From a virus (lineage: Duplodnaviria; Heunggongvirae; Uroviricota; Caudoviricetes), in IMG/VR virus record IMGVR_UViG_2778261139_000004, positions 1 through 39,211 of that record: DNA of 39,211 nt. One strand, given 5' to 3'. Made by a program: the position numbers and the translations under genes. Shown here piece by piece: positions 2,941 to 28,500 of the stretch (positions within the stretch are counted from its first letter, which is position 1; each line of letters opens with the position of its first letter). The notes below the pieces were generated by a model. That model did no database searches. It had not been told where the DNA came from and worked only from the letters and a program-made list of their open reading frames with translations.

Positions 2941-3822
2941 TTAATTCGAAATGATTGTGCTTCTTATGCATGCAACTACCTCGATATCAGAAAATGCACA
3001 TTCAAAGTAAGTTTCTTTACTTCTGATATTTATCATACCTTTAGGTAGCCTAGTAATTTGTCTGACGGAATAGGTTCCATCAATATTAATTAACCAGTAT
3101 CCATCTAATACATCAGAAAATTTCTGATCACAGATGTATGTCACTAAACCATCCTGAACGACAATTGGTGCTGAAAGATTAGCGGGTAAAAATGACGAAT
3201 CGAAAATATATGAGCCACTCTCAACCATTTTGCCTGCATTGAGATGAAATTTAGGCAGTTCTTTTACCGATGTTGTGAGAGCATTGTGCTCGCTGCCTTG
3301 TCCAGTGGCTAGCCATAAAAGAGAATTTCCTGTTTCCAACGAACATTTTATGATCCAATCAGCCGGGAATGTGTCTCGCAAATATCTATTTGCCATAGTG
3401 CTTTTAGATACATTCAGATGGTCGGCAAGTTCTTGTCTTGTTTTAAAGCCATACGCTTTCATTAGCCTGTCTATTGCATCACGTCCGCCTGAGTCCAAAT
3501 TCAGATCGTTCCCAATTGGGGACTTCAGTGTGGTGGCTTGGGAAACGTGCTGAACCTTTGATGCAGTTGCCTTTGACATGACCGGAGCCTCAGTACTCTG
3601 AGGGAATGGTACGCCTTTTCCGAATGAGAGCCACTCGATAGATGCACCCGTTTCAATTGCACACTGAATTACCCAGTCAGCAGGAAATACGTCACGCATC
3701 CAGCGCGTGCCCATAGTGCTTGCAGATACGTTGAACTGTTCGCACAGAGCTTGCCTTGTCTTGAATCCATACGCTTCAAGCATGCGCGTTATGACTGCTT
3801 GTCCTCCGTTTTTGAAATTCAT
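2941..3822 (-). CDS. cI: CI-like immunity repressor (186 type) with a tandemly duplicated N-terminal DNA-binding domain
   Basis: 293-aa ORF divergent from the apl/cII operon. Two related segments occur in tandem (MLEAYGFKTRQALCEQFNVSASTMGTRWMRDVFPADWVIQCAIETGASIEWL and LMKAYGFKTRQELADHLNVSKSTMANRYLRDTFPADWIIKCSLETGNSLLWL), followed by one C-terminal domain. Confidence 0.75.
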   Translation of the reverse strand: MNFKNGGQAVITRMLEAYGFKTRQALCEQFNVSASTMGTRWMRDVFPADWVIQCAIETGASIEWLSFGKGVPFPQSTEAPVMSKATASKVQHVSQATTLKSPIGNDLNLDSGGRDAIDRLMKAYGFKTRQELADHLNVSKSTMANRYLRDTFPADWIIKCSLETGNSLLWLATGQGSEHNALTTSVKELPKFHLNAGKMVESGSYIFDSSFLPANLSAPIVVQDGLVTYICDQKFSDVLDGYWLINIDGTYSVRQITRLPKGMINIRSKETYFECAFSDIEVVACIRSTIISN

Positions 3823-5752: not shown

Positions 5753-6606
5753 GCACCATCCTGAAATGGGCGGGTAATAAAACCGCCATTATGTCCGAAC
5801 TGAAAAAACATCTTCCTGCTGGCCCGCGACTGGTTGAACCTTTCGCGGGTTCTTGTGCTGTGATGATGGCGACGGATTACCCCAGCTATCTGGTTGCGGA
5901 TATTAATCCTGATTTAATCAACCTCTATAAAAAGGTTGCTGCTGATTGTGAGGCGTTTATATCTCGCGCCAGAGTTTTATTTGAGGAAGCAAACAGGGAA
6001 GTGGCTTATTACAACATAAGGCAGGAGTTTAATTACTCCACTGAAATTACTGATTTCATGAAAGCAGTATATTTCCTGTATCTCAATCGTCACGGTTACC
6101 GTGGGTTATGTCGCTATAACAAAAGCGGGTATTTCAACATTCCCTACGGTAATTATAAAAATCCGTATTTCCCTGAAAAAGAAATTCGCGCTTTTGCAGA
6201 AAAAGCCCAGCGAGCAACGTTTATCTGCGCCAGCTTTGATGAAACGCTGGCGATGTTGAAGGCGGGGGATGTGGTGTATTGCGATCCGCCTTATGACGGT
6301 ACGTTTTCCGGCTATCACGCTGACGGCTTTACTGAAGATGACCAGTATCACCTGGCATCCGTTCTTGAACATCGGTCATCAGAAGGACATCCGGTCATTG
6401 TTTCTAACAGTGACACATCCCTGATCCGTTCGCTGTATCGCAATTTTACTCACCACTATATCAAGGTAAAACGCAGCATCGGCGTAGCAGCTGGTGAGAG
6501 TAAATCAGCAACAGAAATCATTGCTGTTTCCGGGCCGCGCTGCTGGGTGGGATTTGATTATTCGCGTGGCGTGGATAGTTCTGCCGTGTACGGAGTACGT
6601 GCATGA
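5749..6606 (+). CDS. dam: DNA adenine methyltransferase (Dam-like, N6-adenine)
   Basis: N-terminal LKWAGNK and FAGS motifs and the catalytic DPPY motif (VYCDPPYDG). ATGA start/stop overlap with the upstream gene. Confidence 0.85.
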
Positions 6607-9017
6607 GCCATGCCGATATGAGCAACTGCTGCGGCTTTAAAGAGGCTGCCGCATCGTTCTCATGGAACAGCCCGAAAAAGGCCATTAACCCTTATCTGGA
6701 CCCGGCGGAAGTTGCGCCGGTTTCTGCGCTTTCAAACCTGATCACTCTGTACGCTGCCGATAACGAGCAGGAACAACTGCGCCGCGAGGCACTGAGTGAT
6801 CAGGTCTGGGAGCGTTATTTCTTTAATGAATCCCGTGATCCTGTCCAACGCGAAATAGAACAGGATAAGCTCATTAGCCGGGCAAAGTTGGCGCATGAGC
6901 AGCAGCGTTTTAACCCGGACATGGTCATTCTGGCAGACGTCAGCGTCCAGCCCTCCCATATCAGCAAGCCGCTGATGCAACGTATTGAATACTTCAGCAG
7001 CCTGGGCAGGCCAAAGGCTTATTCCCGCTATTTACGTGAGACGATTAAGCCATGTCTGGAACGACTGGAGCATGTACGCGACAGCCAGCTATCTGCATCT
7101 TTTCGTTTTATGGCAAGCCATGTAGGGCTGGACGGCCTGCTGATTCTGCCTGAAATGAGTCAGGATCAGGTGAAACGCCTGTCTACCCTTGTCGCTGCGC
7201 ATATGAGCATGTGCCTTGATGCAGCTTGTGGTGATTTGTATGCCACCGATGACGTTAAGCCAGAAGAAATCCGCAAGACATGGGAAAAGGTGGCAGCGGA
7301 AACCCTGCGTCTGGATGTCATCCCGCCTGCGTTTGAGCAACTCCGTCGGAAAAGAAACCGCCGTAAACCCGTGCCCTATGAACTCATTCCGGGTTCGCTG
7401 GCGCGTATGTTGTGCGCCGACTGGTGGTACCGGAAATTATGGAAAATGCGTTGCGAATGGCGGGAAGAGCAGTTGCGTGCTGTCTGCCTGGTCAGCAAAA
7501 AAGCATCTCCCTATGTCAGCTATGAAGCCGTGATGCATAAACGTGAGCAGCGCCGCAAGTCACTGGAGTTTTTCCGTTCTCATGAACTGGTGAACGAAGA
7601 GGGCGACACGCTGGATATGGAAGACGTGGTAAACGCCAGCAGCAGCAACCCGGCGCACCGCCGCAATGAGATGATGGCCTGTGTTAAAGGTCTGGAGCTT
7701 ATCGCGGAAATGCGCGGTGACTGCGCCGTTTTCTACACCATTACCTGTCCGTCACGTTTCCATTCCACGCTCAATAACGGCAGACCAAACCCAACCTGGA
7801 CAAATGCGACGGTAAGACAAAGCAGCGATTATCTGGTCGGCATGTTTGCTGCATTTCGTAAGGCGATGCACAAAGCCGGGTTGCGCTGGTATGGCGTGCG
7901 GGTGGCTGAGCCGCATCATGACGGTACAGTTCACTGGCACCTGTTGTGTTTCATGCGCAAAAAAGACCGCCGCGCCATTACTGCATTGTTGCGTAAGTTT
8001 GCCATCCGTGAAGACCGCGAGGAACTGGGTAATAACACTGGTCCACGCTTTAAATCTGAGCTGATAAACCCGCGCAAAGGAACGCCGACAAGCTACATCG
8101 CGAAATACATCAGTAAGAACATTGACGGGCGTGGTCTGGCTGGCGAGATCAGCAAGGAAACGGGTAAATCCCTGCGTGATAACGCTGAATACGTTAATGC
8201 CTGGGCGTCTCTGCATCGTGTTCAGCAATTCCGCTTCTTTGGCATTCCGGGGCGTCAGGCTTACCGTGAACTGCGATTGCTGGCTGGTCAGGCGGCAAGG
8301 CAACAGGGCGACAAAAAAGCAGGTGCGCCGGTACTGGATAACCCGCGCCTTGATGCCATCCTGGCTGCTGCTGATGCTGGTTGTTTTGCCACCTACATCA
8401 TGAAGCAGGGCGGCGTACTGGTTCCCCGCAAATATCACCTCATCAGAACCGCTTATGAAATTAACGAAGAGCCGACCGCCTATGGCGATCACGGCATTCG
8501 TATTTATGGCATCTGGTCACCCATTGCAGAGGGCAAGATCTGCACTCATGCCGTGAAGTGGAAAATGGTTCGTAAGGCCGTTGACGTTCAGGAGGCGGCA
8601 GCCGACCAGGGCGCTTGCGCCCCTTGGACTCGTGGCAATAACTGTCCCCTTGCTGAAAATTTGAACCAGCAGGAGAAAGATAAATCAGCTGATGGGGACA
8701 CCAGAACGGACATTACCCGCATGGATGACAAGGAGTTGCACGATTATCTGCACAGTATGAGCAAAAAAGAGCGCCGGGAACTGGCTGCAAGGTTACGCCT
8801 GGTTAAGCCGAAACGGCGTAAAGACTACAAACAGCGAATTACAGATCATCAGCGACAGCAGCTCGTCTATGAACTGAAGTCCAGAGGATTTGATGGCAGC
8901 GAGAAAGAGGTCGATTTACTCCTTCGCGGTGGCAGTATTCCGTCAGGAGCAGGCCTGCGTATCTTCTATCGGAACCAGCGTTTGCAGGAAGATGATAAGT
9001 GGCGGGATCTGTATTAA
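6603..9017 (+). CDS. A: Replication initiation endonuclease (P2 gpA family, rolling-circle initiator)
   Basis: 804-aa ORF containing the conserved YIAKYISK active-site tyrosine region; ATGA overlap with dam. Confidence 0.85.
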
Positions 9018-9367: not shown

Positions 9368-9601
9368 ATGCGCATTGAAATAATGATCGATAAAGAGCAG
9401 AAGATTAGCCAGTCTACCCTGGACGCCCTTGAATCCGAGCTTTACCGCAATCTGCGCCCCCTGTATCCCAAAACGGTAATTCGTATCCGTAAAGGTAGCT
9501 CTAACGGTGTGGAACTGACTGGACTGCAACTGGACGAAGAAAGGAAGCAAGTGATGAAAATTATGCAGAAGGTGTGGGAAGACGACAGCTGGCTGCATTA
9601 A
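9368..9601 (+). CDS. dinI: DinI-like protein
   Basis: 77 aa, MRIEIMIDKEQ ... VWEDDSWLH; resembles the DinI family in length and pattern (MRIEV ... start, acidic C-terminus with W). Confidence 0.7.
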   Translation: MRIEIMIDKEQKISQSTLDALESELYRNLRPLYPKTVIRIRKGSSNGVELTGLQLDEERKQVMKIMQKVWEDDSWLH

Positions 9602-9736
9602 GAAACGTTGCTGGCGTCTGAACTTGTTTCTGGCGTCAGCAAGGTTTAACAACGAGCCCTTGTGAGGCGTTAGCTCTGTAGTGCATGTCTATGCCGCATG
9701 AGATCGCATGATCGTTTGAGGATCGTTTTTGCTAAG

Positions 9737-9760
9737 GCCCGCCAGAACTGGCGGGCTTTT
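9737..9760 (+). terminator. Rho-independent terminator ending the early operon
   Basis: GCCCGCCAG-aac-CTGGCGGGC stem-loop followed by TTTT. Confidence 0.6.
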
Positions 9761-9807
9761 GCGTAGATCATGCAGGTGCATGAAAACCACTACATAAAGC
9801 GGGCAGG

Positions 9808-9826
9808 CGTGGCGGGGATACGAGCG
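9808..9826. other. cos-like motif resembling the P2/186 cohesive-end core
   Basis: GGCGTGGCGGGGATACGAG; the first 13 nt match my recollection of the 186 cohesive end (GGCGTGGCGGGGAAAGCAT). Recollection only, not verified. Confidence 0.3.
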
Positions 9827-9832
9827 CGCGCC

Positions 9833-9861
9833 TTGCCTTATATCTATTTGTTCATTAAAAT
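9833..9861 (+). promoter_or_regulatory. Putative sigma70 promoter for the retron ncRNA/RT operon
   Basis: TTGCCT (9833-9838), 17-bp spacer, TAAAAT (9856-9861). Confidence 0.3.
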
Positions 9862-10075
9862 CATTATGCTCTTTAGTGTAGGAACATTGGTTCCAGCCGG
9901 GTGATTAGCCAGGCTTAAATTTATTGTCCGGTTTAGGGTTGCGAAAGACACAGATTTCTCCTTCGCATCCCTGCCCGGGGCAGATATGCGAAGGAGAAAT
10001 CTGTGTCTTTCGCTGTCTTTAGTGAAGAGTCAAAGCGCTATGTAAAGTTGCATAGCGCTTTGGTTTTAAGAGGGG
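9862..10075 (+). ncRNA. Candidate retron msr-msd non-coding RNA region; boundaries approximate
   Basis: Structured non-coding DNA directly upstream of a retron-type RT: palindrome GGAAC-attg-GTTCC (9881-9894), perfect 28-bp inverted repeat (9941-10013) and a perfect 12-bp hairpin (10031-10062). a1/a2 repeats not confidently identified. Confidence 0.4.
9941..10013. repeat. Perfect 28-bp inverted repeat with a 17-nt partly palindromic spacer (candidate msd stem-loop)
   Basis: GCGAAAGACACAGATTTCTCCTTCGCAT (9941-9968) and its exact reverse complement (9986-10013); spacer CCCTGCCCGGGGCAGAT. Confidence 0.9.
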
Positions 10076-10079
10076 TTAT

Positions 10080-11015
10080 ATGCAACTAACTTCTAAAATT
10101 ATCAGTAAGTTTAATTATAATAGATTAGCTTTCCAATTACTTTTAAATGAGGCCCCCAAAAAATATAAAGTTTATTATATTCCTAAACGTGGCGCAGGTT
10201 TTCGGGTGATAGCTCAGCCGACAAAGGAACTAAAAAACGTACAGAGATTTATAGTATCTTTGCTACAGCCAAAGCTGCCTGTTCATCATAAGGCAATGGC
10301 ATATGAATATAAAAAAAGTATTAAAGATAATGCATTGTTGCATAAAGATAATAATTATATTCTTAAAATGGATTTTCAGAACTTCTTTAACAAAATTAAA
10401 CCTGATATATTTTTCTCGAAACTTGAGAACACAGGGCTGAAATTGGATTCATTTGATGAGAATACCCTACGTAATTTGCTTTTTTGGCGTCCGGGAAAAA
10501 AGAGAAGTACAACGTTGATATTAAGTGTAGGGGCGCCAAGCTCACCATTTATTAGTAATTTTGTTATGTATGACTTTGACAAGAGTCTTGATGATTGGTG
10601 CCGTAACAATGGTATCACTTATTCAAGGTATGCAGATGATATAACTTTTTCAACTAATATTAAGGATATATTGTGCAGGGTTCCTAAGGTGGTAAAAAAA
10701 ATGTTGTCGCTCCATGTTCCCGGTCTATCAATCAATGAATCTAAAACAATTTTTACATCGATGGCTCATAATCGGCACGTGACTGGTGTAACACTTACAC
10801 CTCAGGGCAATTTATCAATTGGTCGCGATCGTAAAAGGATGCTGTTTGCAAAGATTCATAAATATTCTTTGGGACTCTTATCTTCCGAAGAAATAAATAA
10901 AACCAAAGGGATGATTGCGTTTGCAAATTATTTGGAGGGTGATTTTTTATTAAGGTTACAAAAAAAATATGGTTGTGAGTTAATAACTAAGTTCCTGATG
11001 GAAGGAAACAAATAA
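10080..11015 (+). CDS. Retron-type reverse transcriptase
   Basis: 311 aa with the RT active-site motif YADD (SRYADDITFS), an upstream GAPSSP motif, and the retron-typical VTG motif (NRHVTGV) downstream. AT-rich cargo. Confidence 0.85.
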   Translation: MQLTSKIISKFNYNRLAFQLLLNEAPKKYKVYYIPKRGAGFRVIAQPTKELKNVQRFIVSLLQPKLPVHHKAMAYEYKKSIKDNALLHKDNNYILKMDFQNFFNKIKPDIFFSKLENTGLKLDSFDENTLRNLLFWRPGKKRSTTLILSVGAPSSPFISNFVMYDFDKSLDDWCRNNGITYSRYADDITFSTNIKDILCRVPKVVKKMLSLHVPGLSINESKTIFTSMAHNRHVTGVTLTPQGNLSIGRDRKRMLFAKIHKYSLGLLSSEEINKTKGMIAFANYLEGDFLLRLQKKYGCELITKFLMEGNK

Positions 11016-12649
11016 TGATAAATAAAATGAATTTAGAGACTTGCTATGTTGATTTTTTAGAGTTGGAATCACATGTGATAAACGAGGATTATTTGAAGGA
11101 GTCTGTTGAGCTTCAAAAGCTAATATCTACTTTAAATGAGAGTAAGTTTCATTTAAATAAAATAGGTATACATGATTTTAAACGGATAAGAGAACTACAG
11201 ATTTCTTTAGAAGATGATTTGACTGTTTTTGTCGGGGATAACGGATTCGGTAAAAGCACTATTTTGGATGCAATAGCAATTGTTTTGAGTTGGTTGAGAT
11301 CAAATATTGAAAAGGAGAGTAAGCCTGGTACTTATATTAAAAGCCATGAAGTTAATAACTCTGTTGATGTTGAGTATGCATCAATTGATGCAAATATAAA
11401 ACTCAAGGACTTTAATACCAGTATTTTGATTACTAAAGCGAAAGAGGGGGCATATTATTCTAGAAATAATGAATTGTTGGAGGTAAAAAAACTTGCAAGT
11501 ATTTATAGACTTGTGAATAAATATGTTGATAATGCAAGCTTGCCTTTGATGGCATATTATTCTATTGCGCGTTCTTATATAGGCGGCGGGGTTGATAGGA
11601 AAAGAAAAAATGCTAAAACTAAAACTGTATGGTCAAAATTCGATGTGTATGATGAAATCGAGTTTGACAGAAATGATTTTACCGATTTTTTTCAATGGCT
11701 TGTATTTCTTCATAACAGAGCTTCACAAGAGAAATTGAGTGAGTCACAAACGACAATCAATGCGTTATTTTCAGATATTCAGAGTTTGAAAGCAACATTA
11801 ACTCAACTATCTGCGATTGATAATATTGATTCAACAGTTATAAAAGGTTTAGAGCTTTCGCTTAAAGAAAAATTGAACTACATGAAATCTCTGCAATCAG
11901 GAGAACATAAGTTTAATAATGCAGTATCACTTTATGATAGTGTTATAAATACCATTCTAAAGTTCTTGCCTGAATTTCAGTGGATTAAGCTTGTTTATGG
12001 TGATGATGATTATAAGATTATCCTTAAAAAAGGAGAGGTTGAATTAGATATTCAACAGTTGTCTCAAGGTGAGAAAACTATATTTACTTTAGTTGGTGAT
12101 TTGGCTCGACGTTTAATTTTACTTAATCCAAATTTATCTAATCCTCTATTGGGATATGGGATTGTTTTAATTGATGAAATTGATTTGCATTTGCATCCGC
12201 AATGGCAACAGACAATTATTGAGCGTTTGACATCTACATTCCCAAATGTTCAATTTGTAATTACTACCCATAGCCCACAGGTTTTATCCACTGTTAGCTC
12301 TCGTTCAGTGCGTATTCTACAGGAAGTGGAAGTAGATGGTGTTAATGATTTGATAGTGTCTCACCCCGACTATCAAATAAAAGGTGTTAGTAATCAGGAT
12401 GCACTTTTATATGGAATGAGAACTGATCCTATACCCTCTACTAAAGAAAATGGTTGGCTTGAAGAATATAAAAAATTGGTTGAGCTTAATCGTTATAGCA
12501 GTGACGAGGCTCTTTTGTTAAGAGAAAAAGTTATTAAACATTTCGGATTAGACCATCCTTTAGTTCAAGAGTGTGATGATCTTATATCTGTTTTGGAGTT
12601 CAAAAATAAGATAAATCAGCACTTTTCTGGAAGTAAGGATGTAAAATGA
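11015..12649 (+). CDS. PtuA-like ABC/AAA-type ATPase (Septu-type effector partner of the RT)
   Basis: Walker A GDNGFGKST, Walker B VLIDEIDLHLHP, TTHSP motif. Start overlaps the RT stop. Confidence 0.8.
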   Translation: MINKMNLETCYVDFLELESHVINEDYLKESVELQKLISTLNESKFHLNKIGIHDFKRIRELQISLEDDLTVFVGDNGFGKSTILDAIAIVLSWLRSNIEKESKPGTYIKSHEVNNSVDVEYASIDANIKLKDFNTSILITKAKEGAYYSRNNELLEVKKLASIYRLVNKYVDNASLPLMAYYSIARSYIGGGVDRKRKNAKTKTVWSKFDVYDEIEFDRNDFTDFFQWLVFLHNRASQEKLSESQTTINALFSDIQSLKATLTQLSAIDNIDSTVIKGLELSLKEKLNYMKSLQSGEHKFNNAVSLYDSVINTILKFLPEFQWIKLVYGDDDYKIILKKGEVELDIQQLSQGEKTIFTLVGDLARRLILLNPNLSNPLLGYGIVLIDEIDLHLHPQWQQTIIERLTSTFPNVQFVITTHSPQVLSTVSSRSVRILQEVEVDGVNDLIVSHPDYQIKGVSNQDALLYGMRTDPIPSTKENGWLEEYKKLVELNRYSSDEALLLREKVIKHFGLDHPLVQECDDLISVLEFKNKINQHFSGSKDVK

Positions 12650-13329
12650 AATATCTATCTAGGCAAATGCCAGGGCCTTCCGTTCTTAATAAATTTGACT
12701 ATAGGAGGGATGATTGGAATTCCCTATCATCAAATGATAAAAAAGAAATATGGGAAGAAATAATAAAAATGCAAGGTAAATTATGTGCTTATTGCGAGAA
12801 AAAAATAGAGCATCATAAAAGTGGTGGCAAAAATAAAGTTGAGAGGCATATTGAGCATTTTTACAGGAAAAGTTATTACAAAAATTTAACTTTCGAGTGG
12901 TCTAATTTGTTTGGCTCATGTGGTGAGCCGCAAAGGTGTGGGTTTTATAAGGATAAGCAAAAATATAACGATGATGATTTAATTAAAGCTGATAGACAAA
13001 ATCCAGATGTTTTTTTCCATTTTTTGGAAAATGGTGATGTTCATATTAGAGAAGGCTTGAATGAGAAAGAACACAAAATGGCAGAGGTTACGTTAAGAGT
13101 ATTTAACTTAAACCCGTCCTCAGGAGGAGTCAAGGCGGAAAGAAGACGTGCAATAGAATTAAGCATGACATTAATAAAGGAACTGGTCGGATGTGCATCT
13201 CAGCTTATTGAATCAGGATGTGAAATTGAAGATGTTAGATCTATGGTCTTTGATGAGTTTAAAAAGAATGTAAAAGATAGATGCTTTACCACTGCGATAA
13301 AGCATGTTTTTGAGAATAGAATGCCTTAA
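12646..13329 (+). CDS. PtuB-like HNH-type nuclease
   Basis: CAYCEKKIEHH ... ERHIEHF ... SCGEPQRCG cysteine/histidine pattern consistent with an HNH zinc-finger nuclease. Overlaps the ATPase stop by 4 nt. Confidence 0.65.
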   Translation: MKYLSRQMPGPSVLNKFDYRRDDWNSLSSNDKKEIWEEIIKMQGKLCAYCEKKIEHHKSGGKNKVERHIEHFYRKSYYKNLTFEWSNLFGSCGEPQRCGFYKDKQKYNDDDLIKADRQNPDVFFHFLENGDVHIREGLNEKEHKMAEVTLRVFNLNPSSGGVKAERRRAIELSMTLIKELVGCASQLIESGCEIEDVRSMVFDEFKKNVKDRCFTTAIKHVFENRMP

Positions 13330-13352
13330 AGGTTAGAGGGATGTATATATAA

Positions 13353-14384
13353 TTAATCTATATTATATTCTGAGAAATTGATAATATGCATCCCTATCCA
13401 CTGATTAAATTCATGGATTTTTTTTTGTAGAGGTACTAATTCATTTGTCACAAAAACCTTACTAGCTTTCTCCACATCCCCAAACCCCCCAACATTATTC
13501 GGCATAATCCCCATCATTTGCGGCGGCACACGGTGTGCCGCCATCATGTCGTCCCGGCTCACGTTCTTGATATTCAGAAATTCATCCTTCGCTGCAACTT
13601 CTGACAACGGGATGATCTGAAGCCCGTCCTTTTTGCCGTTAGGCGAGTACATAAACAAGTTACGGAAGTTGCCCGGTCCTTTGGCGCTTTTCATCGCGTT
13701 GCGGAGGTTGTTCACATCCTCCTGGTTCTGCGCGGCGTCAGTCATATACATGATGAAGCCTGCATGACTGCCGTTAATGTAATACTTGCGGCGGAACAGC
13801 GTGGCGGACTCGTTGAGCAGGGCTGACGGAATGGCAGAAAGATAACCGGGCAGGCCGTAGATCTCCTGGTTGATGTCCGGTTCCATCAGATGAAAAATGC
13901 TGCCTTTCGCGAACTGATACGGCTGGGTTGTCATACCGTATTGCACAAACCAGTAGGTATCCAGGTCTAACCCGCGTCGGGTGTATTTTGCCAGCGCAGG
14001 CTCAAGGGCGATAACTTCACCGAATCGGTTCGTGCGTTTCTCCAGGTAGGCGTTACCAAATACCAGATAGTCCAGCACAAAACGCGAAAAAGCCTGCTGG
14101 CTGAGAAGCGGGTGAGGGATGTAGGTGCTGGTCAGAATGTTGCATTTCACTGCAATTGGTGAACTGTGATGCACGGCAGCGCGGAAGGTGCGCGCCAGTC
14201 CGTCAAAGCTGACGGGAGGCTCATACCAGCGATCTGTCTGTACGCATTCCACATAGTCCAGCAGTTCGCGGCGGTCAAGTACTGGAATGGGATCACCGAA
14301 GCTGAATGCTTCGGCTGAAGCTTGGCTTTTATGCTGGATCTGGTTCGTCGCCGCAGCGCGTTTTTTTTTACTCTTTCCCATCAA
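13353..14384 (-). CDS. Q: Portal protein (P2 gpQ-like)
   Basis: 343 aa, syntenic with P2 Q immediately before the terminase ATPase gene; overlaps the P stop by 4 nt. Its 3' end is AT-rich. Confidence 0.85.
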   Translation of the reverse strand: MMGKSKKKRAAATNQIQHKSQASAEAFSFGDPIPVLDRRELLDYVECVQTDRWYEPPVSFDGLARTFRAAVHHSSPIAVKCNILTSTYIPHPLLSQQAFSRFVLDYLVFGNAYLEKRTNRFGEVIALEPALAKYTRRGLDLDTYWFVQYGMTTQPYQFAKGSIFHLMEPDINQEIYGLPGYLSAIPSALLNESATLFRRKYYINGSHAGFIMYMTDAAQNQEDVNNLRNAMKSAKGPGNFRNLFMYSPNGKKDGLQIIPLSEVAAKDEFLNIKNVSRDDMMAAHRVPPQMMGIMPNNVGGFGDVEKASKVFVTNELVPLQKKIHEFNQWIGMHIINFSEYNID

Positions 14385-16147
14385 AAAATCTCCACAATAT
14401 TGCTGGTATTGGCGGACTCGCCCTGCAGCGGTTCGTTAAACAGTGCGTGCATTGTTGCCCAGGCCAGATCGGCATGGCTGGCTTCTTCACTGCGGCTTGC
14501 TTCATAGGTCGGGCGGTTGCCGCTGGCGGTGGTTGCGCGACGGATTGCCATAAATGACTGCGCTATGTCGGTGTGTCCGGCGTCAAACTCCAGACGACGG
14601 TGACTGATAATGTCGTAGGCCTTGAGTACCAGGGCGTTTTTAACGTTGGGGTTGTAGACAAACTCCCGGACGGCTGGAAAAAACGCTTTCACGTTTTCAT
14701 AAACCCCGTGACCGACACCCGTCGAGTCGATGCCGATATAGGTCACGTTGTACTGTTCGGTCAGTTTTTTGATGGCGTCAGCCTGGGCGCGGAAGTCCAT
14801 CCCGCGCCACTGGTGACGCTCAAGAATGCGGAACTTACCGCCCGGCACGGCTGGCGGTGCCACCACCACGCATCCGGCGCTGTCGCCGTTTTGCGTACCT
14901 TTTGCCGGGTCATAACCGATCCACACCTCGCGCCAGCCAAACGGGCGCAGGGCCAGTGCATGAAAGTCGGTCCAGACTTCCCAGCTGTCCACCATGCACG
15001 CCTGCAGCTCGCTGAGCGGGAACACGGACGCGAGATCGTCCACGAACTCGCACATCAGCAGGTTCTGGTATTCGTCCGGGCTGTACTCCATGCGCAACTG
15101 GTCAAGGTCGAACAGGTTACAGCCGCCGCGCACCGCATCTTCCACGGTGACTATCTGGCGGTATTGCCCGTCTGCGCACAGCAGGCCGGGGGCCAGATTG
15201 CTATGGGACAGGTCGATGTCCACCTTGTCGGCTTTGTTGCGTCCACGGTTGAACAGCGCACCGGACCAGAACGGATAAGCACTGTGGGTCAGGCTGGATG
15301 GCGTGGAAAAATAGGTTTGTCGCCATTTTTTGTGAATAGCCATACCGGAAGCCACTTTGCGCAGCTCCTGGAATTTCGGTATCCAGAAATATTCATCCAG
15401 ATACAGGTTGCCGTGGTAACTCTGGGCCGTGCGGGCATTGGTGCCGAGGAAGTAAAGAGTGGCCCCGTTGGGAAGCACCATCGGATCGCCTTTCAGCTCC
15501 ACCTCCACTTCTTTGGCGAAGTCGATGATGTACTGTTTAAAGACGTGGGCCTGTGCCTTACTGGCGGAAAGGAAAATCTGGTTACGTCCGGTTAGCAGGG
15601 CGTCAATCAGGGCTTCACGGGCAAAATAGAAGGTCGCGCCGATCTGGCGTGACTTCAGCAGGTTGCGGATGCGGTTGGTTTTTCCGGCTTCCCACCAGTG
15701 GCGCTGGTAGTTGAACATGGAGGAATGGAAGATTTCTTCCAGCTTCTCAATCTGTTCATCGGTGAAAACATTCTTTTCCGGCTGACGGCGCGGGCCTTTG
15801 TTGCGGTTGGCGACGTTAGGGTTTAAGTCGGCTTCGTTGCCGCCATTGTTAAACTTGCCGATCCGCGCGTGGCGCTCCGACTGGCGCGCCAGCAGGTCAA
15901 TTTCTTTAAAGTCTTTCCCTTCTTTGTGCTCCTTCATGATGAGCTGGCAGTAGCGTGCGGCGGTGGTGAGCTGCATCTGATCCAGCGGCCCATAGTAACC
16001 CCACTTGTCGCGTTTTTTCCAGCTGTGAACGGTTGCAACTTTCTCGCCCAGCATTTCAGCAATGCGGGCTACGCGGTATCCCTGAAAGTACAGCAGCATG
16101 GCCTGCCGACGGGGATCGAGATCTGCGGATGTCAGTGTGGTGTTCAT
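14381..16147 (-). CDS. P: Terminase large (ATPase) subunit (P2 gpP-like)
   Basis: 588-aa ORF divergent from the O-N-M-L operon, in the P2 position. Confidence 0.85.
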   Translation of the reverse strand: MNTTLTSADLDPRRQAMLLYFQGYRVARIAEMLGEKVATVHSWKKRDKWGYYGPLDQMQLTTAARYCQLIMKEHKEGKDFKEIDLLARQSERHARIGKFNNGGNEADLNPNVANRNKGPRRQPEKNVFTDEQIEKLEEIFHSSMFNYQRHWWEAGKTNRIRNLLKSRQIGATFYFAREALIDALLTGRNQIFLSASKAQAHVFKQYIIDFAKEVEVELKGDPMVLPNGATLYFLGTNARTAQSYHGNLYLDEYFWIPKFQELRKVASGMAIHKKWRQTYFSTPSSLTHSAYPFWSGALFNRGRNKADKVDIDLSHSNLAPGLLCADGQYRQIVTVEDAVRGGCNLFDLDQLRMEYSPDEYQNLLMCEFVDDLASVFPLSELQACMVDSWEVWTDFHALALRPFGWREVWIGYDPAKGTQNGDSAGCVVVAPPAVPGGKFRILERHQWRGMDFRAQADAIKKLTEQYNVTYIGIDSTGVGHGVYENVKAFFPAVREFVYNPNVKNALVLKAYDIISHRRLEFDAGHTDIAQSFMAIRRATTASGNRPTYEASRSEEASHADLAWATMHALFNEPLQGESANTSNIVEIF

Positions 16148-16193
16148 GGCACAAACCTACAGCCTTGAATAAAGGCTTTCCCCGCCTGCGGTT

Positions 16194-16211
16194 TGTGTGG
16201 TTGTCGGTACA
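16194..16211. promoter_or_regulatory. TGT-N12-ACA element, candidate Ogr-dependent late promoter activator site in the P/O divergent region
   Basis: TGTGTGGTTGTCGGTACA in the 142-bp region between divergent P and O. Confidence 0.35.
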
Positions 16212-16289
16212 AATACCGCGCATTGTTTCACTGCCCCCATCACCGCAACCATAAGGCTCCAGTAAGTTTTTTCTAACGGAGCACGGCTC

Positions 16290-17123
16290 ATGACAGTGAA
16301 AGCAAAGCGTTTTCGCATCGGGGTGGAAGGTGCCACCACCGACGGACGCGAAATCCAGCGTGAATGGCTGGAACAGATGGCAGCCAGCTACAACCCGGCG
16401 GTGTACACCGCGCTGATTAACCTTGAGCACATCAAGTCTTATCTGCCGGACAGCACCTTTAACCGCTACGGCAAGGTGACGGCGCTGTTTGCTGAAGAAA
16501 TCACGGAAGGTCCGCTGGCAGGCAAGATGGCATTGTATGCCGACGTTGAGCCAACGGAGTCCCTGGTGGAACTGGTGAAAAAAGGCCAGAAATTATTCAC
16601 CTCTATGGAAGTCAGCCCGAAGTTCGCTGATACGGGCAAAGCCTACCTGGTTGGCCTGGCCGCCACTGATGATCCCGCCAGTCTGGGTACGGAAATGCTG
16701 ACATTCAGCGCCAGTGCAGCCCATAACCCGCTGGCAAACCGCAAGCAGAATCCCGCCAATCTTTTTACCGCTGCAGAGGAAACGGTGATCGAACTGGAAG
16801 AAATCCAGGAGGACAAGCCGTCCCTGTTTGCCCGTGTCACGGCGCTGTTTACCAAAAAAGAGCAGTCCGATGACGCCCGGTTCTCTGATGTGCATAAGGC
16901 CGTGGAGCTGGTCGCCACTGAGCAGCAGAACCTGAGCGCACGCACCGAAAAATCCCTGTCTGAGCAGGAAGAACGCCTGTCTGAGCTGGAGACTGCTCTG
17001 CAGGAGCAGCAAACCGCCTTTAACGAACTGGTGAATAAGCTGAGTCATGAAGACAGCCGCCAGGACTACCGCCAGCGTGCAACAGGCGGTAACGCCCCCG
17101 CTGACACTCTGACCAATTGCTGA
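16290..17123 (+). CDS. O: Capsid scaffolding protein (P2 gpO-like)
   Basis: 277 aa, first gene of the rightward head operon; coiled-coil-rich C-terminus. Confidence 0.85.
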   Translation: MTVKAKRFRIGVEGATTDGREIQREWLEQMAASYNPAVYTALINLEHIKSYLPDSTFNRYGKVTALFAEEITEGPLAGKMALYADVEPTESLVELVKKGQKLFTSMEVSPKFADTGKAYLVGLAATDDPASLGTEMLTFSASAAHNPLANRKQNPANLFTAAEETVIELEEIQEDKPSLFARVTALFTKKEQSDDARFSDVHKAVELVATEQQNLSARTEKSLSEQEERLSELETALQEQQTAFNELVNKLSHEDSRQDYRQRATGGNAPADTLTNC

Positions 17124-17139
17124 TGGAGCACAAAACCTG

Positions 17140-18198
17140 ATGAAGAAGAATACCCGCTTTGCTTTTAACGCTTACCTGCAGCAACTGGCACGTCTGAACG
17201 GTGTGGCAGTTGAAGAACTGTCCAGCAAGTTCACTGTAGAGCCGTCTGTGCAGCAGACGCTGGAAGACCAGATCCAGCAGTCCGCCGCTTTCCTGACGCT
17301 GATTAACGTCACGCCAGTGCCTGAGCAGTCCGGTCAGCTGCTGGGGCTGGGTGTTGGCAGCACCATTGCCGGAACCACTGACACCACCGCGAAAGAGCGT
17401 GAACCTGTCGATCCGACGCTGATGGTCGATGTGGAATACAAATGCGAACAGACCAACTTTGACACGGTGCTGACCTACGCGAAGCTGGACCTGTGGGCGA
17501 AGTTTCAGGATTTCCAGGTGCGTATCCGTAACGCCATCGTGAAACGTCAGGCACTGGACCGCATCATGATTGGCTTTAACGGCGTGAAGCGTGCGAAAAC
17601 CTCTAACCGTAGCGAAAACCCGCTGCTGCAGGATGTGAACAAAGGCTGGCTGCAGAAAATCCGTGAGGATGCACCGGATCACGTCATGGGCAGCACCATC
17701 ACGGGCGGTGAAACCACACCGGGTGCGGTGAAAGTCGGGAAAGGTGGCGAATATGCCAACCTGGACGCCGTGGTGATGGATGCCGTCAATGAGCTTATCG
17801 ACGTGGTCTACCAGGACGATGACGATCTGGTGGTGATTTGCGGTCGTGAACTGCTGTCTGACAAGTATTTCCCGCTGGTCAACAAAGAGCAGGAAAACAG
17901 TGAAAAACTGGCTGCCGATATGATCATCAGTCAGAAACGCATGGGTGGCCTTCAGGCCGTGCGTGCGCCGTTCTTCCCGCCGAATGCGCTGCTGATCACC
18001 CGTCTGGATAACCTGTCCATCTACTGGCAGGAAGACACCCGCCGCCGTTCAGTTATCGACAACCCGAAACGTGACCGGATTGAAAACTTTGAATCCGTTA
18101 ACGAAGCCTATGTGGTTGAGGACTACCGCTGCGCCGCACTGGTGGAAAACATCCAGATTGGTGATTTCAGCGCCGCCGCAGCCGAAACCGGAGCGTAA
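17140..18198 (+). CDS. N: Major capsid protein (P2 gpN-like)
   Basis: 352-aa ORF after the scaffold gene. Confidence 0.9.
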   Translation: MKKNTRFAFNAYLQQLARLNGVAVEELSSKFTVEPSVQQTLEDQIQQSAAFLTLINVTPVPEQSGQLLGLGVGSTIAGTTDTTAKEREPVDPTLMVDVEYKCEQTNFDTVLTYAKLDLWAKFQDFQVRIRNAIVKRQALDRIMIGFNGVKRAKTSNRSENPLLQDVNKGWLQKIREDAPDHVMGSTITGGETTPGAVKVGKGGEYANLDAVVMDAVNELIDVVYQDDDDLVVICGRELLSDKYFPLVNKEQENSEKLAADMIISQKRMGGLQAVRAPFFPPNALLITRLDNLSIYWQEDTRRRSVIDNPKRDRIENFESVNEAYVVEDYRCAALVENIQIGDFSAAAAETGA

Positions 18199-18201
18199 TC
18201 C

Positions 18202-18852
18202 ATGAGCCTGAGTCCCGCACGGCAGCATCGCCTGCGCGTTCAGGCTGAACAGGCCGCCCGCGAGGGCGGCAGTGTTCGCCACGCATCGGGCTATGATCTG
18301 ATGCTGCTGCAACTGGCGGAAGACCGCCGCCGTCTCAAGGGCGTTCAGTCCACGGTCAAAAAAGCGGAAATCAAGGTGGAGCTGCTGCCGAAGTACGCCG
18401 CCTGGGCAGAGGGTGTCCTGGCTGCCGGAGGCGCTCAACAGGATGACGTGCTGATGTACGTGATGCTGTGGCGCATTGATGCCGGAGATTATGCCGGGGC
18501 GCTGGAGATCGGGCGTCATGCCCTGCGTCATGGCTGGGTGATGCCGCTGGGTAACCGCAACGTGCAGACCGTGCTGGCAGAGGAAATGGCAGATGCAGCC
18601 CAGAGCGCAATGCTTGCCGCCACCGGCTTTGATGCCGATCTGTTGTTGCAGACGCTGGAGCTGACAGACGGTCTGGATATGCCGGACCAGTCACGGGCGC
18701 GTCTGCATAAAGCGATTGGCGCTGTCCTGAGTGAAAGCAATCCGGCTTCCGCCCTTAATCATCTCAACCATGCGTTACAGCTCGATCCCCGCTGTGGCGT
18801 GAAAAAAGACAAACAGCAGCTGGAGCGCAGACTGCGCAATGACAGCCGCTGA
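18202..18852 (+). CDS. M: Terminase small (endonuclease) subunit (P2 gpM-like)
   Basis: 216-aa ORF in the P2 M position. Confidence 0.8.
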   Translation: MSLSPARQHRLRVQAEQAAREGGSVRHASGYDLMLLQLAEDRRRLKGVQSTVKKAEIKVELLPKYAAWAEGVLAAGGAQQDDVLMYVMLWRIDAGDYAGALEIGRHALRHGWVMPLGNRNVQTVLAEEMADAAQSAMLAATGFDADLLLQTLELTDGLDMPDQSRARLHKAIGAVLSESNPASALNHLNHALQLDPRCGVKKDKQQLERRLRNDSR

Positions 18853-18946
18853 CAGAACGTGCCCCGCGCACGGGCGGCACGGGGTGGCGAAAGGCACTGC
18901 CACATCAAAACCCCGTCCACCGCCCTCTATTTCAGGAGAAAGCAGC

Positions 18947-19411
18947 ATGAAGTTTGTTGCGCCAGAACAGGCACCGGAACAGGCGGAAATCATCAGGAAT
19001 ACGCCGTTCTGGCCTGATGTGAACTTGTCGGAGTTTCGCAGTGTCATGCGCACTGACGGTACGGTGACGCAGCCGCGTTTAAAGCAGGTTGCGCTGTCGG
19101 CAATTTCGGAGGTCAACGCAGAGCTGTATGAGTTTCGCAGACGTCAGCAGATGCTGGGGTATGCGTCGCTGGCTGAGGTTCCGGCGGAACAGCTGGACGG
19201 CAAAAGTGAGCGCATTCAGCATTATTTCAACGCGGTTTACTGCTGGGCACGCGCCATGCTCAACGAACGTTACCAGGACTATGACGCCACGGCGTCCGGT
19301 GTGAAGCGGGGCGAGGAACTGGCGGAAGCAAGCGGTGATTTGTGGCGTGACGCCCGCTGGGCCATCAGCCGGGTGCAGGATGCGCCGCACTGCACAGTGG
19401 AGCTTATCTGA
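18947..19411 (+). CDS. L: Head completion/stabilisation protein (P2 gpL-like)
   Basis: ATG at 18947 with GGAGAAAG upstream; the ORF track extends upstream to 18839. Confidence 0.8.
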   Translation: MKFVAPEQAPEQAEIIRNTPFWPDVNLSEFRSVMRTDGTVTQPRLKQVALSAISEVNAELYEFRRRQQMLGYASLAEVPAEQLDGKSERIQHYFNAVYCWARAMLNERYQDYDATASGVKRGEELAEASGDLWRDARWAISRVQDAPHCTVELI

Positions 19412-19614
19412 TGAAAGTGCGTGCGCATCAGTATGACACGGTGGACGCGCTTTGCTGGCGTCATTACGGGCGCACGCAGGGTGTCACGGAGCAGGTACTG
19501 AAGGCAAATCCGGGGCTTGCCGAATACGGCCCCTTTTTACCTCACGGGCTGCAGGTGGAGCTGCCGGACATTCCGACCACCACCACCGTGCAGACCGTCC
19601 AGCTATGGGACTGA
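19411..19614 (+). CDS. X: Tail protein X (P2 gpX-like)
   Basis: 67-aa ORF in the P2 X position. Confidence 0.75.
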   Translation: MKVRAHQYDTVDALCWRHYGRTQGVTEQVLKANPGLAEYGPFLPHGLQVELPDIPTTTTVQTVQLWD

Positions 19615-19617
19615 ATT

Positions 19618-19833
19618 ATGACGCTTGAGCGAATCAGCGCCTTTATCACGTATTGCATCGCCGTCGTGCTGGCCTGGCTGGGCGATTTGTCCATCAAGGA
19701 TGCCTCAACGCTGGGCGGCCTGATGATTGGTGTGCTGATGCTGGCTATCAACTGGTACTACAAACATAAAGCCTACCAGCTTCTGCGCGACGGGCAGATC
19801 TCGCGGGAGGACTATGAATCCATCAATCGTTAA
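19618..19833 (+). CDS. Holin
   Basis: 71 aa with two hydrophobic helices and a charged C-terminus, immediately upstream of the lysozyme gene. Confidence 0.65.
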   Translation: MTLERISAFITYCIAVVLAWLGDLSIKDASTLGGLMIGVLMLAINWYYKHKAYQLLRDGQISREDYESINR

Positions 19834-20329
19834 ACGCTGCCTTGTCGGGGCCGTGCTGGCTATTGCAGCTACGTTGCCGGGTTTTCAGCAGCTTCACACC
19901 TCCGTGGAGGGGCTGAAACTAATTGCCGATTACGAAGGCTGCCGTCTGCAGCCGTATCAGTGCAGTGCAGGTGTCTGGACCGACGGCATTGGTAATACAT
20001 CGGGCGTCATTCCCGGCAAAACAATCACGGAACGACAGGCAGCAGAAGGGCTGATTTCCAACGTGCTGCGTGTGGAGCGGGCGCTGGAAAGGTGTGTGAA
20101 GCAACAGCCGCCGCAGAAGGTATATGACGCTACGGTGTCGTTTGCCTTCAACGTGGGAACGGGCAATGCCTGCAGTTCCACACTGGTGAAATTACTCAAT
20201 CAGCGGCGCTGGGCAGAAGCGTGCCGACAGTTGCCGCGCTGGGTTTATGTGAAAGGTGTGTTTAATCAGGGGCTGGATAACCGCCGTGCGCGGGAGATGG
20301 CCTGGTGCTTTAAAGGAGCTGGACTATGA
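19814..20329 (+). CDS. Endolysin (lysozyme family) with an N-terminal hydrophobic, possibly signal-anchor-release segment
   Basis: 171 aa; N-terminal Gly/Ala-rich hydrophobic stretch (LVGAVLAIAATL) followed by a lysozyme-like E ... D ... T region (DYEG ... GVWTDGIGNT). Confidence 0.7.
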   Translation: MNPSIVKRCLVGAVLAIAATLPGFQQLHTSVEGLKLIADYEGCRLQPYQCSAGVWTDGIGNTSGVIPGKTITERQAAEGLISNVLRVERALERCVKQQPPQKVYDATVSFAFNVGTGNACSSTLVKLLNQRRWAEACRQLPRWVYVKGVFNQGLDNRRAREMAWCFKGAGL

Positions 20330-20754
20330 CGCGTGCGCTGGCGGTAGTGGCGGCGCTGGCACTCGTTGCGCTGGGCTGGCAGTCGTGGCGGCTTAACAGC
20401 GCCAGCCACACCATCGAAACGCAGCGCGCGGCGCTGAAAAGTAAAGCGCACGAACTAACGAAGAAAAATAGCCAGCTGATCAGTCTGTCCATTCTGGCTG
20501 AAACCAATAACCGGGAGCAGGCGCGGCTCTATGCCGAAGCAGAACAGACCAGCGCGCTGCTGAGACAACGACAACACCGGATCGAGGAACTGAAACGTGA
20601 GAACGAGGATTTACGCCGCTGGGCTGATACTCCTTTGCCTGCTGACATTATCCGGCTGCGAAAACGTCCGGTATTCACCGGAGGTGCAGCTTACCGTCAG
20701 TGGTTGTCCGCGAGTGACGCCGTGTCGGCTGGATCAGGCAACGCCGCGCACTAA
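20326..20754 (+). CDS. i-spanin (Rz / LysB-like)
   Basis: 142 aa with an N-terminal TM segment and a coiled-coil-like charged region. Confidence 0.65.
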   Translation: MTRALAVVAALALVALGWQSWRLNSASHTIETQRAALKSKAHELTKKNSQLISLSILAETNNREQARLYAEAEQTSALLRQRQHRIEELKRENEDLRRWADTPLPADIIRLRKRPVFTGGAAYRQWLSASDAVSAGSGNAAH

Positions 20755-20887
20755 CGGTGATCTGAACGCGTTGCTGGATGAAACGGAGGCCGCCTGGGCG
20801 GTCTGTGCAGACAAAGTGGACATGATTATTGCGTGTCAGGAGCGAAACAGTGAACAAACCACAATCCCTGCGCCACGCCCTCAATAA
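20597..20887 (+). CDS. o-spanin (Rz1 / LysC-like outer-membrane lipoprotein) in an overlapping frame
   Basis: Signal peptide with lipobox LSGC (MRTRIYAAGLILLCLLTLSGC); encoded in a different frame overlapping the i-spanin 3' end and the R 5' end. Confidence 0.55.
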   Translation: MRTRIYAAGLILLCLLTLSGCENVRYSPEVQLTVSGCPRVTPCRLDQATPRTNGDLNALLDETEAAWAVCADKVDMIIACQERNSEQTTIPAPRPQ

Positions 20888-21720: not shown

Positions 21721-21806
21721 AGATTCACGCTTTTGCTAGCTTCTACAAGGTTTTATGCTTCTAAACACTGTATGTTTAATTTGACATATAACTATTTGTA
21801 CAAGCG

Positions 21807-23036: not shown

Positions 23037-23047
23037 TCTCCCTAAGT

Positions 23048-23065
23048 TGTGCCAGAAATGGCACA
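23048..23065. promoter_or_regulatory. TGT-N12-ACA dyad, candidate Ogr-dependent late promoter element for the V operon
   Basis: TGTGCCAGAAATGGCACA just upstream of V; could alternatively act as a terminator hairpin for the SIR2 gene. Confidence 0.35.
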
Positions 23066-23113
23066 GCTTTAAATCCTATCCTAATGACGGCAGCATTTGG
23101 CAATCTAATTGCC

Positions 23114-28048: not shown

Positions 28049-28059
28049 CCTGAATAAAA

Positions 28060-28434: not shown

Positions 28435-28500
28435 GTTTAAGAAAATGCAGAGATAATGGCTAACTGGCATCATCCCCGGTTTTTATTCAGGGGATTGATC

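Follow-up and report, generated by a model that had tools for sequence, protein, structure and literature searches.

The cassette at positions 9833-13329 of the window, by which we mean the whole stretch of 39,211 nucleotides that was analysed, is almost certainly (we put the probability at roughly 0.95) another copy of "Retron-FORC", the type I-A retron known in E. coli FORC_082, which here travels as cargo of a P2-like prophage and is lodged between cos and the portal gene Q. Because it is nearly identical to the FORC_082 retron, solved in 2025, it is an already known system: both structure and mechanism have been published (George et al., Nat Commun, PMC12475279) and the cassette adds no new biology to them. 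Its value is contextual, in that the P2-like prophage which carries this FORC_082-type retron is to all appearance intact, that diverged type I-A retrons form a family that occupies the same cos-Q slot, and that two further features have come to light: a natural variant of the ATPase (E156) and, between the ncRNA and the reverse transcriptase (RT) gene, a hairpin whose position is conserved.

Across 9600-13400 the DNA shares 99.8% identity with FORC_082 and 100% with E. coli SC475, and the part running from 9664 to 10079, which holds the ncRNA and the spacer ahead of the RT gene, has zero differences from FORC_082. What separates the two loci is one residue of the ATPase (E156 here, G156 there) and seven further nucleotide differences. 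The counterparts of the cassette proteins in the PDB are the FORC_082 retron entries 9N69, 9N6B and 9N6C: the RT is identical to 9n69_E at 311/311 residues, the ATPase to 9n69_A at 542 of the 543 aligned residues (2-544; the structure has G in place of E156) and to the FORC_082 genomic protein at 543/544, while the HNH protein matches 9n69_F over its full length (1-227) and the FORC_082 genomic HNH at 227/227. The residues mutated in PMC12475279 are all kept under the same numbers, namely D387, Q454 and V73 of the ATPase, H71 and G44 of the HNH protein, and S217, N219 and E220 of the RT. No deposited phage genome was found to carry this retron, whether searched at the nucleotide or at the protein level; the best protein match there was 47.8%, to a Vibrio phage record. 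The features of the locus are as follows.

9806-9824, no strand assigned: cos-like core of 19 nt, equivalent to the cohesive end; bounds the cargo site on the left, outside the retron
9833-9861, + strand: predicted sigma-70 promoter (TTGCCT, 17-nt spacer, TAAAAT)
9869-10029, + strand: msr-msd ncRNA, 161 nt, from fold, covariation and identity to FORC_082
9869-9875 and 10023-10029: inverted repeats of the ncRNA, a2 pairing with a1
9875/9876: A7/G8 of the ncRNA, G8 being the branching/priming guanosine (numbering agrees with PMC12475279)
9881-9894 and 9895-9915: SL-1 and SL-2 of the ncRNA
About 9914-9926: conserved clamp/termination stretch of the ncRNA
9941-10013: long msd hairpin of the ncRNA
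9932-10022, - strand: predicted msDNA, ssDNA of about 90 nt complementary to msd and dominated by a 28+5 bp hairpin
10030-10063, + strand: hairpin after a1, 15 bp, then GGUUUU
10068-10075, + strand: ribosome-binding site of the RT gene (AAGAGGGG), downstream of the hairpin
10080-11015, + strand: retron RT, type I-A, 311 aa; YADD 184-187, VTG 234-236
11015-12649, + strand: PtuA-like SMC/ABC-family ATPase, 544 aa; Walker A GDNGFGKST 74-82
12646-13329, + strand: PtuB-like HNH nuclease, 227 aa; HIEH 68-71, catalytic H71

The first-pass annotation had described a three-gene AT-rich operon with short overlaps, and coordinates and composition bear it out: the three genes all lie on the + strand, RT and ATPase overlap by 1 nt (TAATG) and ATPase and HNH by 4 nt (ATGA), and the GC content is 0.337 as against 0.498 and 0.562 in the flanks. 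None of the three ORFs is disrupted and no catalytic motif is missing. The YADD, VTG and Walker A/B motifs and the HNH-like protein that the first-pass annotation had named are indeed there; Walker B of the ATPase (VLIDEIDLHLHP, 384-395) includes D387, and LSQGE stands at 349-353. These genes are not chance ORFs, the PADLOC matches being RT_I-A for the RT (4.9e-131), PtuA for the ATPase (1.7e-193) and PtuB for the HNH protein (1.5e-117). The proposal of PtuA/PtuB-like effectors likewise stands, since the two proteins match both the Septu PtuA/PtuB profiles and the retron effector profiles (ATPase_I-A, 1.2e-151; HNH_I-A, 3.7e-57). Further matches are to Pfam AAA_15, AAA_21 and SMC_N for the ATPase, and to NCBIfam TIGR02646 (105 bits, cut-off 52) for the HNH protein.

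A structured non-coding region had been noticed upstream of the RT gene, and folding confirms it: 9869-10030 folds at -85 kcal/mol (z = -11.6), and none of 200 shuffles folded as well. When Rfam was run over the whole window at its gathering thresholds, RybB (36434-36512) was the one match and the retron ncRNA drew none; folding and a comparison of relatives therefore served to define the ncRNA. The same architecture appears in the folds of all ten diverged relatives, compensatory changes occur in 24 of the 48 pairs (RNAalifold, 9 sequences), and the CTCTTTAG motif is nearly invariant across the 10 loci. Retron priming takes place beside the a1/a2 stem. The predicted msDNA would probably end at 9932 and 10022; with the identical ncRNA and RT, urea-PAGE and cryo-EM revealed msDNA some 90 nt long (PMC12475279). 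As regards transcription, the promoter candidate is the sole + strand promoter-like site upstream of the ncRNA and its first base is the cassette start, 9833. It matches the consensus at 9/12 positions, in a scan that gave fewer sites than shuffled controls, and TTGNNN-17-TANNNT recurs at an equal distance from the GCTCTTTAG start in those diverged loci whose extract extends far enough. Transcription would probably start at about 9868-9869.

The published work allows a course of events to be proposed. The FORC_082 retron defends against T3 and T5; its msDNA of about 90 nt scaffolds four ATPases and restrains the HNH protein until phage flap nucleases destroy the msDNA, whereupon HNH cuts tRNA-Ser (PMC12475279). 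By analogy, the promoter at 9833-9861 would drive the ncRNA and the three genes, the RT would bind SL-1, prime from the 2'-OH of G8 (9876) and reverse-transcribe the msd hairpin to give about 90 nt of msDNA (experimental steps, both on identical sequence), and the msDNA "harpoon" would recruit two ATPase homodimers and so keep HNH inactive, as seen by cryo-EM with the same proteins. Upon infection, a phage flap endo/exonuclease (T3 exonuclease or T5 D15 in the FORC_082 system) would degrade the msDNA, and HNH, now active, would cleave tRNA-Ser, so that translation and phage growth stop, again as in the FORC_082 system. A second study treats the FORC_082 retron as type I-A and as likewise D15-triggered, and adds that msDNA cleavage alone gave no tRNA cleavage in vitro with Eco7 (PMC12673091). 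That this strain expresses the cassette from its prophage, makes msDNA and is defended would follow by extrapolation from the plasmid-borne FORC_082 clone; in a lysogen, the cassette would then presumably shield the host and the prophage from rivals such as T3 and T5.

A reading to which we give no credence would put the RT outside the retrons, with group II introns, DRT/UG or Abi, and would make the upstream hairpin a mere terminator or structural element of the phage. Nothing speaks for it beyond the generic RVT_1 domain that the RT matches in Pfam, and profile scores rule these identities out: the group II, Drt2, Drt3a and AbiA models reach 30-66 bits against cut-offs of 200-390, whereas NCBIfam retron_St85_RT is passed at 321 bits (cut-off 235), RT_I-A is the best PADLOC profile (434.6 bits, followed by RT_II-A with 368.9 bits), and every one of the best 25 PADLOC matches is a retron RT class. 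The ncRNA, with its a1/a2 stem, conserved AG branch site and covariation, is also against it, and msDNA has been observed for the identical locus (PMC12475279). The retron-class RT of the first-pass annotation is thus upheld, and profile scores and nearest structures together support its assignment to type I-A. After the identical FORC_082 chain (698 bits), the nearest solved RT structures are those of Ec78 and then Ec83 (288 and 269 bits), the very group that had been named at first sight. The cassette lies within that Ec78/Ec83 group (type I-A), yet it is neither Ec78 nor Ec83. With Ec78 (Retron-Eco7) it shares the ncRNA, RT, PtuA ATPase and PtuB HNH in the same order, the same complex architecture, the T5 D15 flap nuclease as a trigger that cuts msDNA, and a tRNA-cleaving effector. 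With Ec83 (Retron-Eco4, "Retron-Septu"), also type I-A, it shares an RT, a PtuA-like ATPase, an HNH protein and an msr-msd ncRNA. The Ec78 chains, however, give only 256-258 bits for the ATPase and 112-123 bits for HNH, as against 1190 and 526 bits for the FORC_082 chains, and Ec83 is farther off still (ATPase 225 bits). Among the NCBIfam Ec78 equivalog models, PtuB scores 160.7 against a cut-off of 150 and PtuA 471.8 against a cut-off of 500; these values and the low bit scores together indicate one and the same type, probably in another lineage. With Septu the likeness lies in the effectors, through the PtuA/PtuB matches and homology to structures 8EE4/8EE7. Septu itself has neither RT nor ncRNA and degrades DNA, whereas here msDNA would restrain the effectors and the target would be tRNA; a stand-alone Septu identity was rejected on the grounds that the effector genes are co-oriented and overlapping with a retron RT gene preceded by an ncRNA.

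These likenesses raise the question of whether the cassette might act as other members do, by cleaving tRNA-Tyr (Ec78/Eco7), by degrading ssDNA (Ec83/Eco4) or by degrading phage DNA (Septu). In its favour, Septu and Ec78 are the sources of the PtuA/PtuB profiles that the effectors match, and close relatives do differ in target: Ec78 cleaves tRNA-Tyr, with T5 tRNAs and ORF75 as means of evading it, while FORC_082 cuts tRNA-Ser and is not so evaded, and Ec83 is reported, as cited in PMC12673091, to degrade ssDNA and not tRNA. We nevertheless hold such action to be extremely improbable, as the HNH protein, the nuclease that bears the specificity, is identical to the one that depletes all four tRNA-Ser species, microscopy showed no DNA degradation for the FORC_082 system, and Ec78 and Ec83 are distant by the RT and HNH scores given above. 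There is a slim chance, somewhat greater, that the cassette is silent or weakened, an ATPase with E156 or poor expression in the prophage context leaving no defence activity. The single amino-acid difference from the tested protein sits near N151 and N152, listed as msDNA-binding in PMC12475279; decayed copies exist, such as the IMG/VR locus L007 with a 50-bp frameshifting deletion in the ATPase; and disturbing the system's balance selects strongly for inactivating mutations (PMC12475279). On the other hand, the intact ORFs with their catalytic motifs and an ncRNA identical to that of FORC_082 argue for a working copy, E156 recurs in no fewer than two independent sources (SC475 and the IMG/VR locus L005, each with an ATPase 100% identical to the one here), and single alanine substitutions at neighbouring msDNA-contact residues left defence unaffected (PMC12475279).

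Conservation of the effectors beside the RT in relatives had been set beforehand as a point on which the retron reading could fail, and the order RT-ATPase-HNH was found in all ten of the diverged loci (48-60% RT identity); in 9/10 the portal gene Q adjoins the cassette. Two of the relatives, N10 and M37H, were considered as Ec78 or Ec83 and rejected as such, their nearest solved RT being that of FORC_082. The prophage of the window is integrated between rcdA and rybB. The FORC_082 retron has the same insertion point, between a DinI-like gene/cos and portal Q in a P2-like prophage at the rcdA-ybjL site; that prophage is devoid of terminase, capsid and lysis genes, whereas the present one looks complete. 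On the left of the cassette, a short-word BLAST of the P2 cos junction showed 9774-9831 to be collinear with the P2 cosR/cosL junction, and the core GGCGTGGCGGGGATACGAG matches the P2 core GGCGAGGCGGGGAAAGCAC at 15/19 positions; a search for the P2/186 cos 19-mer with at most 3 mismatches found none, the site having 4. From this likeness, 9806-9824 probably functions as cos. Homology to other P2-like prophages stops at 9831, 2 nt before 9833, and because the cassette begins about 7 nt past the 19-nt cos core, the retron would come to lie at the very left end of the DNA that the phage packages. The interval gpA-gpQ is a defence hotspot of P2-like phages with retrons among its listed cargo (Rousset et al. 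2022, PMC9122126). The cassette had at first been placed in the variable region of P2-like phages where old and tin reside: the hotspot stands, and like old and tin the cassette is an AT-rich accessory unit between the replication gene A and Q, by cos, but it lies on the Q side of cos and old and tin on the A side. No mention of a position between cos and Q was found in the text of PMC12475279 or PMC12673091.

It is worth considering, finally, the hairpin at 10030-10063 (-21.8 kcal/mol, z = -7.3). The words "terminator" and, in the RNA sense, "hairpin" do not occur in the text of PMC12475279, whose figures and covariance model may show the hairpin; "terminator" was not found in the text of the Eco7 paper (PMC12673091), and nothing relevant emerged when the literature was searched for terminators located between msd and the RT gene. 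One may tentatively suggest, with the odds somewhat against it, that the hairpin is an undescribed functional element of type I-A retrons. It could possibly be a leaky terminator, or a 3'-end or processing structure by which the amount of ncRNA relative to RT/effector mRNA is set, and control of this ratio could matter given that a shortage of RT or msDNA makes the system toxic; another possible role is that of an insulator shielding the a1/a2 stem from ribosomes that load at the adjacent ribosome-binding site. In all ten diverged type I-A loci, a hairpin stands in the same place with a stem of unrelated sequence.

The retron cassette at positions 9833-13329 is, on sequence evidence, effectively the same entity as Retron-FORC, the type I-A retron of E. 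coli FORC_082, and represents a system that is already known. In a PDB sequence search, the reverse transcriptase (RT) was identical to chain 9n69_E across all 311 residues, the HNH protein matched 9n69_F over its full length (1-227, 525.8 bits) and the ATPase aligned with 9n69_A over residues 2-544 with one difference, E156 in the window versus G in the structure. The additional N-terminal residues of the ATPase PDB chain are consistent with the N-terminal Strep tag described in PMC12475279. The 9N69 structure comes from George et al. (Nat Commun 2025; PMC12475279), whose subject was the FORC_082 retron. At the DNA level, 9600-13400 shares 100% identity with E. coli SC475 (NZ_LR778148.1) and 99.8% with FORC_082, the whole window differs from SC475 by 1 mismatch in 33,400 bases compared, and among 5,426 complete genomes of E. 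coli only 4 carry the cassette DNA. The eight nucleotide differences from FORC_082 in 9600-13400 all lie outside 9664-10079, and therefore the non-coding RNA (ncRNA) is identical. All residues mutated in PMC12475279 are conserved under the same numbering (ATPase D387, Q454 and V73; HNH H71 and G44; RT S217, N219 and E220). The cassette is laid out as follows.

9833-9861, + strand: promoter-like site, TTGCCT-17-TAAAAT
9869-9875 paired with 10023-10029, + strand: a2/a1 stem (terminal inverted repeats of the ncRNA)
9881-9894, + strand: SL-1
9895-9915, + strand: SL-2
9941-10013, + strand: msd hairpin, 28+5 bp
10030-10063: hairpin 3' of a1 and 5' of the RT ribosome-binding site (z = -7.3)
10080-11015, + strand: RT ORF, 311 aa, with YADD (aa 184-187) and VTG (aa 234-236)
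11015-12649, + strand: ATPase ORF, 544 aa, with GDNGFGKST (aa 74-82) and VLIDEIDLHLHP (aa 384-395)
12646-13329, + strand: HNH ORF (third protein), 227 aa, with HIEH (aa 68-71)

The first-pass annotation had described an AT-rich operon of three genes with short overlaps, preceded by a structured non-coding region, and this description holds: the three ORFs are co-oriented on the + strand, they overlap by 1 nt (RT/ATPase, TAATG) and 4 nt (ATPase/HNH, ATGA), the GC content of the cassette is 0.337 versus 0.498 and 0.562 for the phage genes on either side, and the RT and ATPase motifs it quoted were all located in the translations. Upstream of the RT, the predicted fold of 9869-10030 has an energy of -85 kcal/mol (z = -11.6). 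When C9869 is taken as position 1, A7 and G8 fall at 9875 and 9876, which agrees with the ncRNA numbering of PMC12475279, where A7 is an adenosine and G8 the priming guanosine; we infer the exact ncRNA and msDNA ends as placed in the window. Rfam returned no match within the retron ncRNA region. Folding predicted the same ncRNA architecture in ten diverged loci, and RNAalifold on nine of these found compensatory double changes at 24 of 48 pairs. TTGNNN-17-TANNNT recurs at an equal distance from the conserved GCTCTTTAG in those diverged relatives for which the aligned sequence reaches far enough upstream.

Profile matches place the cassette in retron type I-A (the Ec78/Ec83 group) with PtuA/PtuB-like effectors, as had been proposed: PADLOC profiles assigned the RT to RT_I-A (4.9e-131), the ATPase to PtuA (1.7e-193) and ATPase_I-A (1.2e-151) and the third protein to PtuB (1.5e-117) and HNH_I-A (3.7e-57). 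Pfam recognized RVT_1 in the RT and AAA_15, AAA_21 and SMC_N in the ATPase, with no domain match in the HNH protein. Among NCBIfam models, the RT passed retron_St85_RT (321, cut-off 235), the third protein passed PtuB (160.7, cut-off 150) and TIGR02646, and the ATPase fell slightly below the Ec78 PtuA equivalog (471.8, cut-off 500). Clustering of the RT with a non-retron class would have overturned the proposal; the NCBIfam group II intron, Drt2, Drt3a and AbiA models all scored far under their cut-offs, so these rival classes were excluded and the RT stands as retron-type, a class assignment made from profile scores and nearest solved structures instead of a phylogenetic tree. The effectors are Septu-like, but the cassette is not a stand-alone Septu system.

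The mechanistic steps were established on the cloned FORC_082 operon (PMC12475279), whose proteins and ncRNA are identical to those of the window except at ATPase residue 156. That operon defends against T3 and T5 and not against T4 or T7; defence is lost with ATPase D387A or HNH H71A, and RT active-site mutants were uncloneable, which points to toxicity (PMC12475279). A complex of about 350-364 kDa was purified, in which the RT is accompanied by a portion of the ncRNA, an msDNA of ~90 nt, four ATPases and one HNH protein, the msDNA threading the ATPase dimers in a harpoon-like manner (PMC12475279). Flap nucleases of T3, T5 (D15) and T7 degrade the msDNA, leading to HNH-dependent growth arrest with depletion of all four tRNA-Ser species and nucleoid compaction instead of DNA degradation (PMC12475279). 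The study of Retron-Eco7 (Ec78) independently regards D15 as a trigger conserved among type I-A retrons and reports that msDNA cleavage by itself is insufficient in vitro (PMC12673091). By analogy, we would expect expression from the native promoter and msDNA production in the window's strain, with E156 being neutral.

ATPase codon 156 (11480-11482) encodes E156 in the window and G156 in FORC_082 and the PDB chain, and the residue lies near N151 and N152, which contact msDNA. Both forms are seen in independent genomes and contigs; we found no mention of this natural variant in the text of PMC12475279 or the Eco7 paper. One IMG/VR contig (L007) has identical RT and HNH proteins and a frame-shifting 50-bp ATPase deletion (6105-6115, corresponding to window 11191-11240), so that this copy looks decayed.

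RTs 48-60% identical to that of the window were found in two E. coli prophages (N10 and M37H) and eight IMG/VR viral contigs. ATPase and HNH homologues follow the RT directly, in the same order, in all ten, and the link between the three genes, which would have been undermined by their separation in relatives, is thereby upheld; portal gene Q comes next on the opposite strand in 9/10. N10 and M37H were considered as Ec78 or Ec83 (Retron-Eco4) and rejected, their closest solved RT being that of FORC_082, and the retrons thus form a P2-associated type I-A lineage distinct from these two classical members. Among deposited phage genomes, the nearest RT homologues occur in an 11.5-kb Vibrio phage record (47.8%) and in Pseudomonas phage PfAC records of ~11.6-11.9 kb (40.9%) (PQ189325.1, OR863250.1, OR801192.1 and OR863249.1), and no isolated P2-like phage record with the retron was found there.

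A stable hairpin occupies 10030-10063, and each of the ten diverged loci has one at the equivalent position; the stems (7-15 bp) are unrelated in sequence, z ranges from -2.5 to -7.3 and a U-tract or U-run follows only some copies. Nine of these counterparts are located as follows.

L003: 5431-5477
L004: 5365-5402
L009: 1597-1645
L011: 807-847
L012: 4951-5000
L013: 629-668
L014: 2884-2929
L015: 4819-4880
L016: 2228-2276

Its candidate roles are those of a leaky terminator, a processing site or an insulator. The text of the FORC_082 paper (PMC12475279) mentions neither a terminator nor a hairpin matching it, and the Eco7 paper mentions no terminator; the published covariance model may already include it.

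The window is a P2-like prophage (integrase, CI, early operon, gene A, DinI-like gene, retron, Q, P, capsid and tail genes) whose insertion site lies between rcdA and rybB/ybjL; the chromosomal flank is recognizable by the RybB small RNA gene (36434-36512, - strand; 105 bits in Rfam). Two features upstream of the cassette are placed as follows.

6603-9017: replication gene A
9806-9824: cos core of a cos-like site, 19 nt, matching P2 at 15/19 positions

The alignment of 9774-9831 is collinear with the P2 cosR/cosL junction and backbone homology to other P2-like prophages ends at 9831, and therefore the cassette sits between cos and Q, its promoter -35 hexamer beginning 9 nt past the cos core. 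The first-pass annotation had put it in the variable region of P2-like phages that holds old and tin. It does lie within the gpA-gpQ hotspot, where retrons are already among the listed cargo (PMC9122126), whereas old and tin of P2 are on the opposite side of cos. We found no mention of this cos-adjacent, Q-side position in the text of PMC12475279 or the Eco7 paper. Within the 3' end of the HNH gene, 48 nt past the Q stop codon, a terminator-like stem-loop with a T-run (13281-13305, - strand) may serve as the terminator of the P-Q operon, the cassette having replaced the tQ spacer seen in P2.

Two other AT-rich islands were observed. One, 1135-2860 (- strand), is flanked by the integrase and CI repressor genes and carries two genes (173 and 400 aa) without Pfam domains that match PDC-M18, a candidate defence system in PADLOC (M18B 5.1e-24, M18A 2.1e-36); FORC_082 lacks this island. 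The adjacent CI repressor (2941-3822, - strand) is 293 aa long and that of FORC_082 189 aa, the extra length coming from a tandem duplication of the N-terminal CI helix-turn-helix domain (aa 1-70 are similar to aa 106-176, with two Pfam Phage_CI_repr stretches). The other island (21813-23036, + strand, GC about 0.36) separates the virion morphogenesis gene from baseplate gene V; its product is a SIR2_2-domain protein that PADLOC matched to LmuA, ThsA and SIR2 at ~1e-20, and the same slot holds a TIR-domain protein gene in FORC_082. The FORC_082 prophage, the source of the published retron, is degraded (L001, the FORC_082 locus, 16782-22114 versus window 14381-30000), with a truncated terminase, some pseudogenes and loss of the capsid, lysis and several tail genes; that of the window appears complete, and the retron may therefore still be carried on a viable phage.
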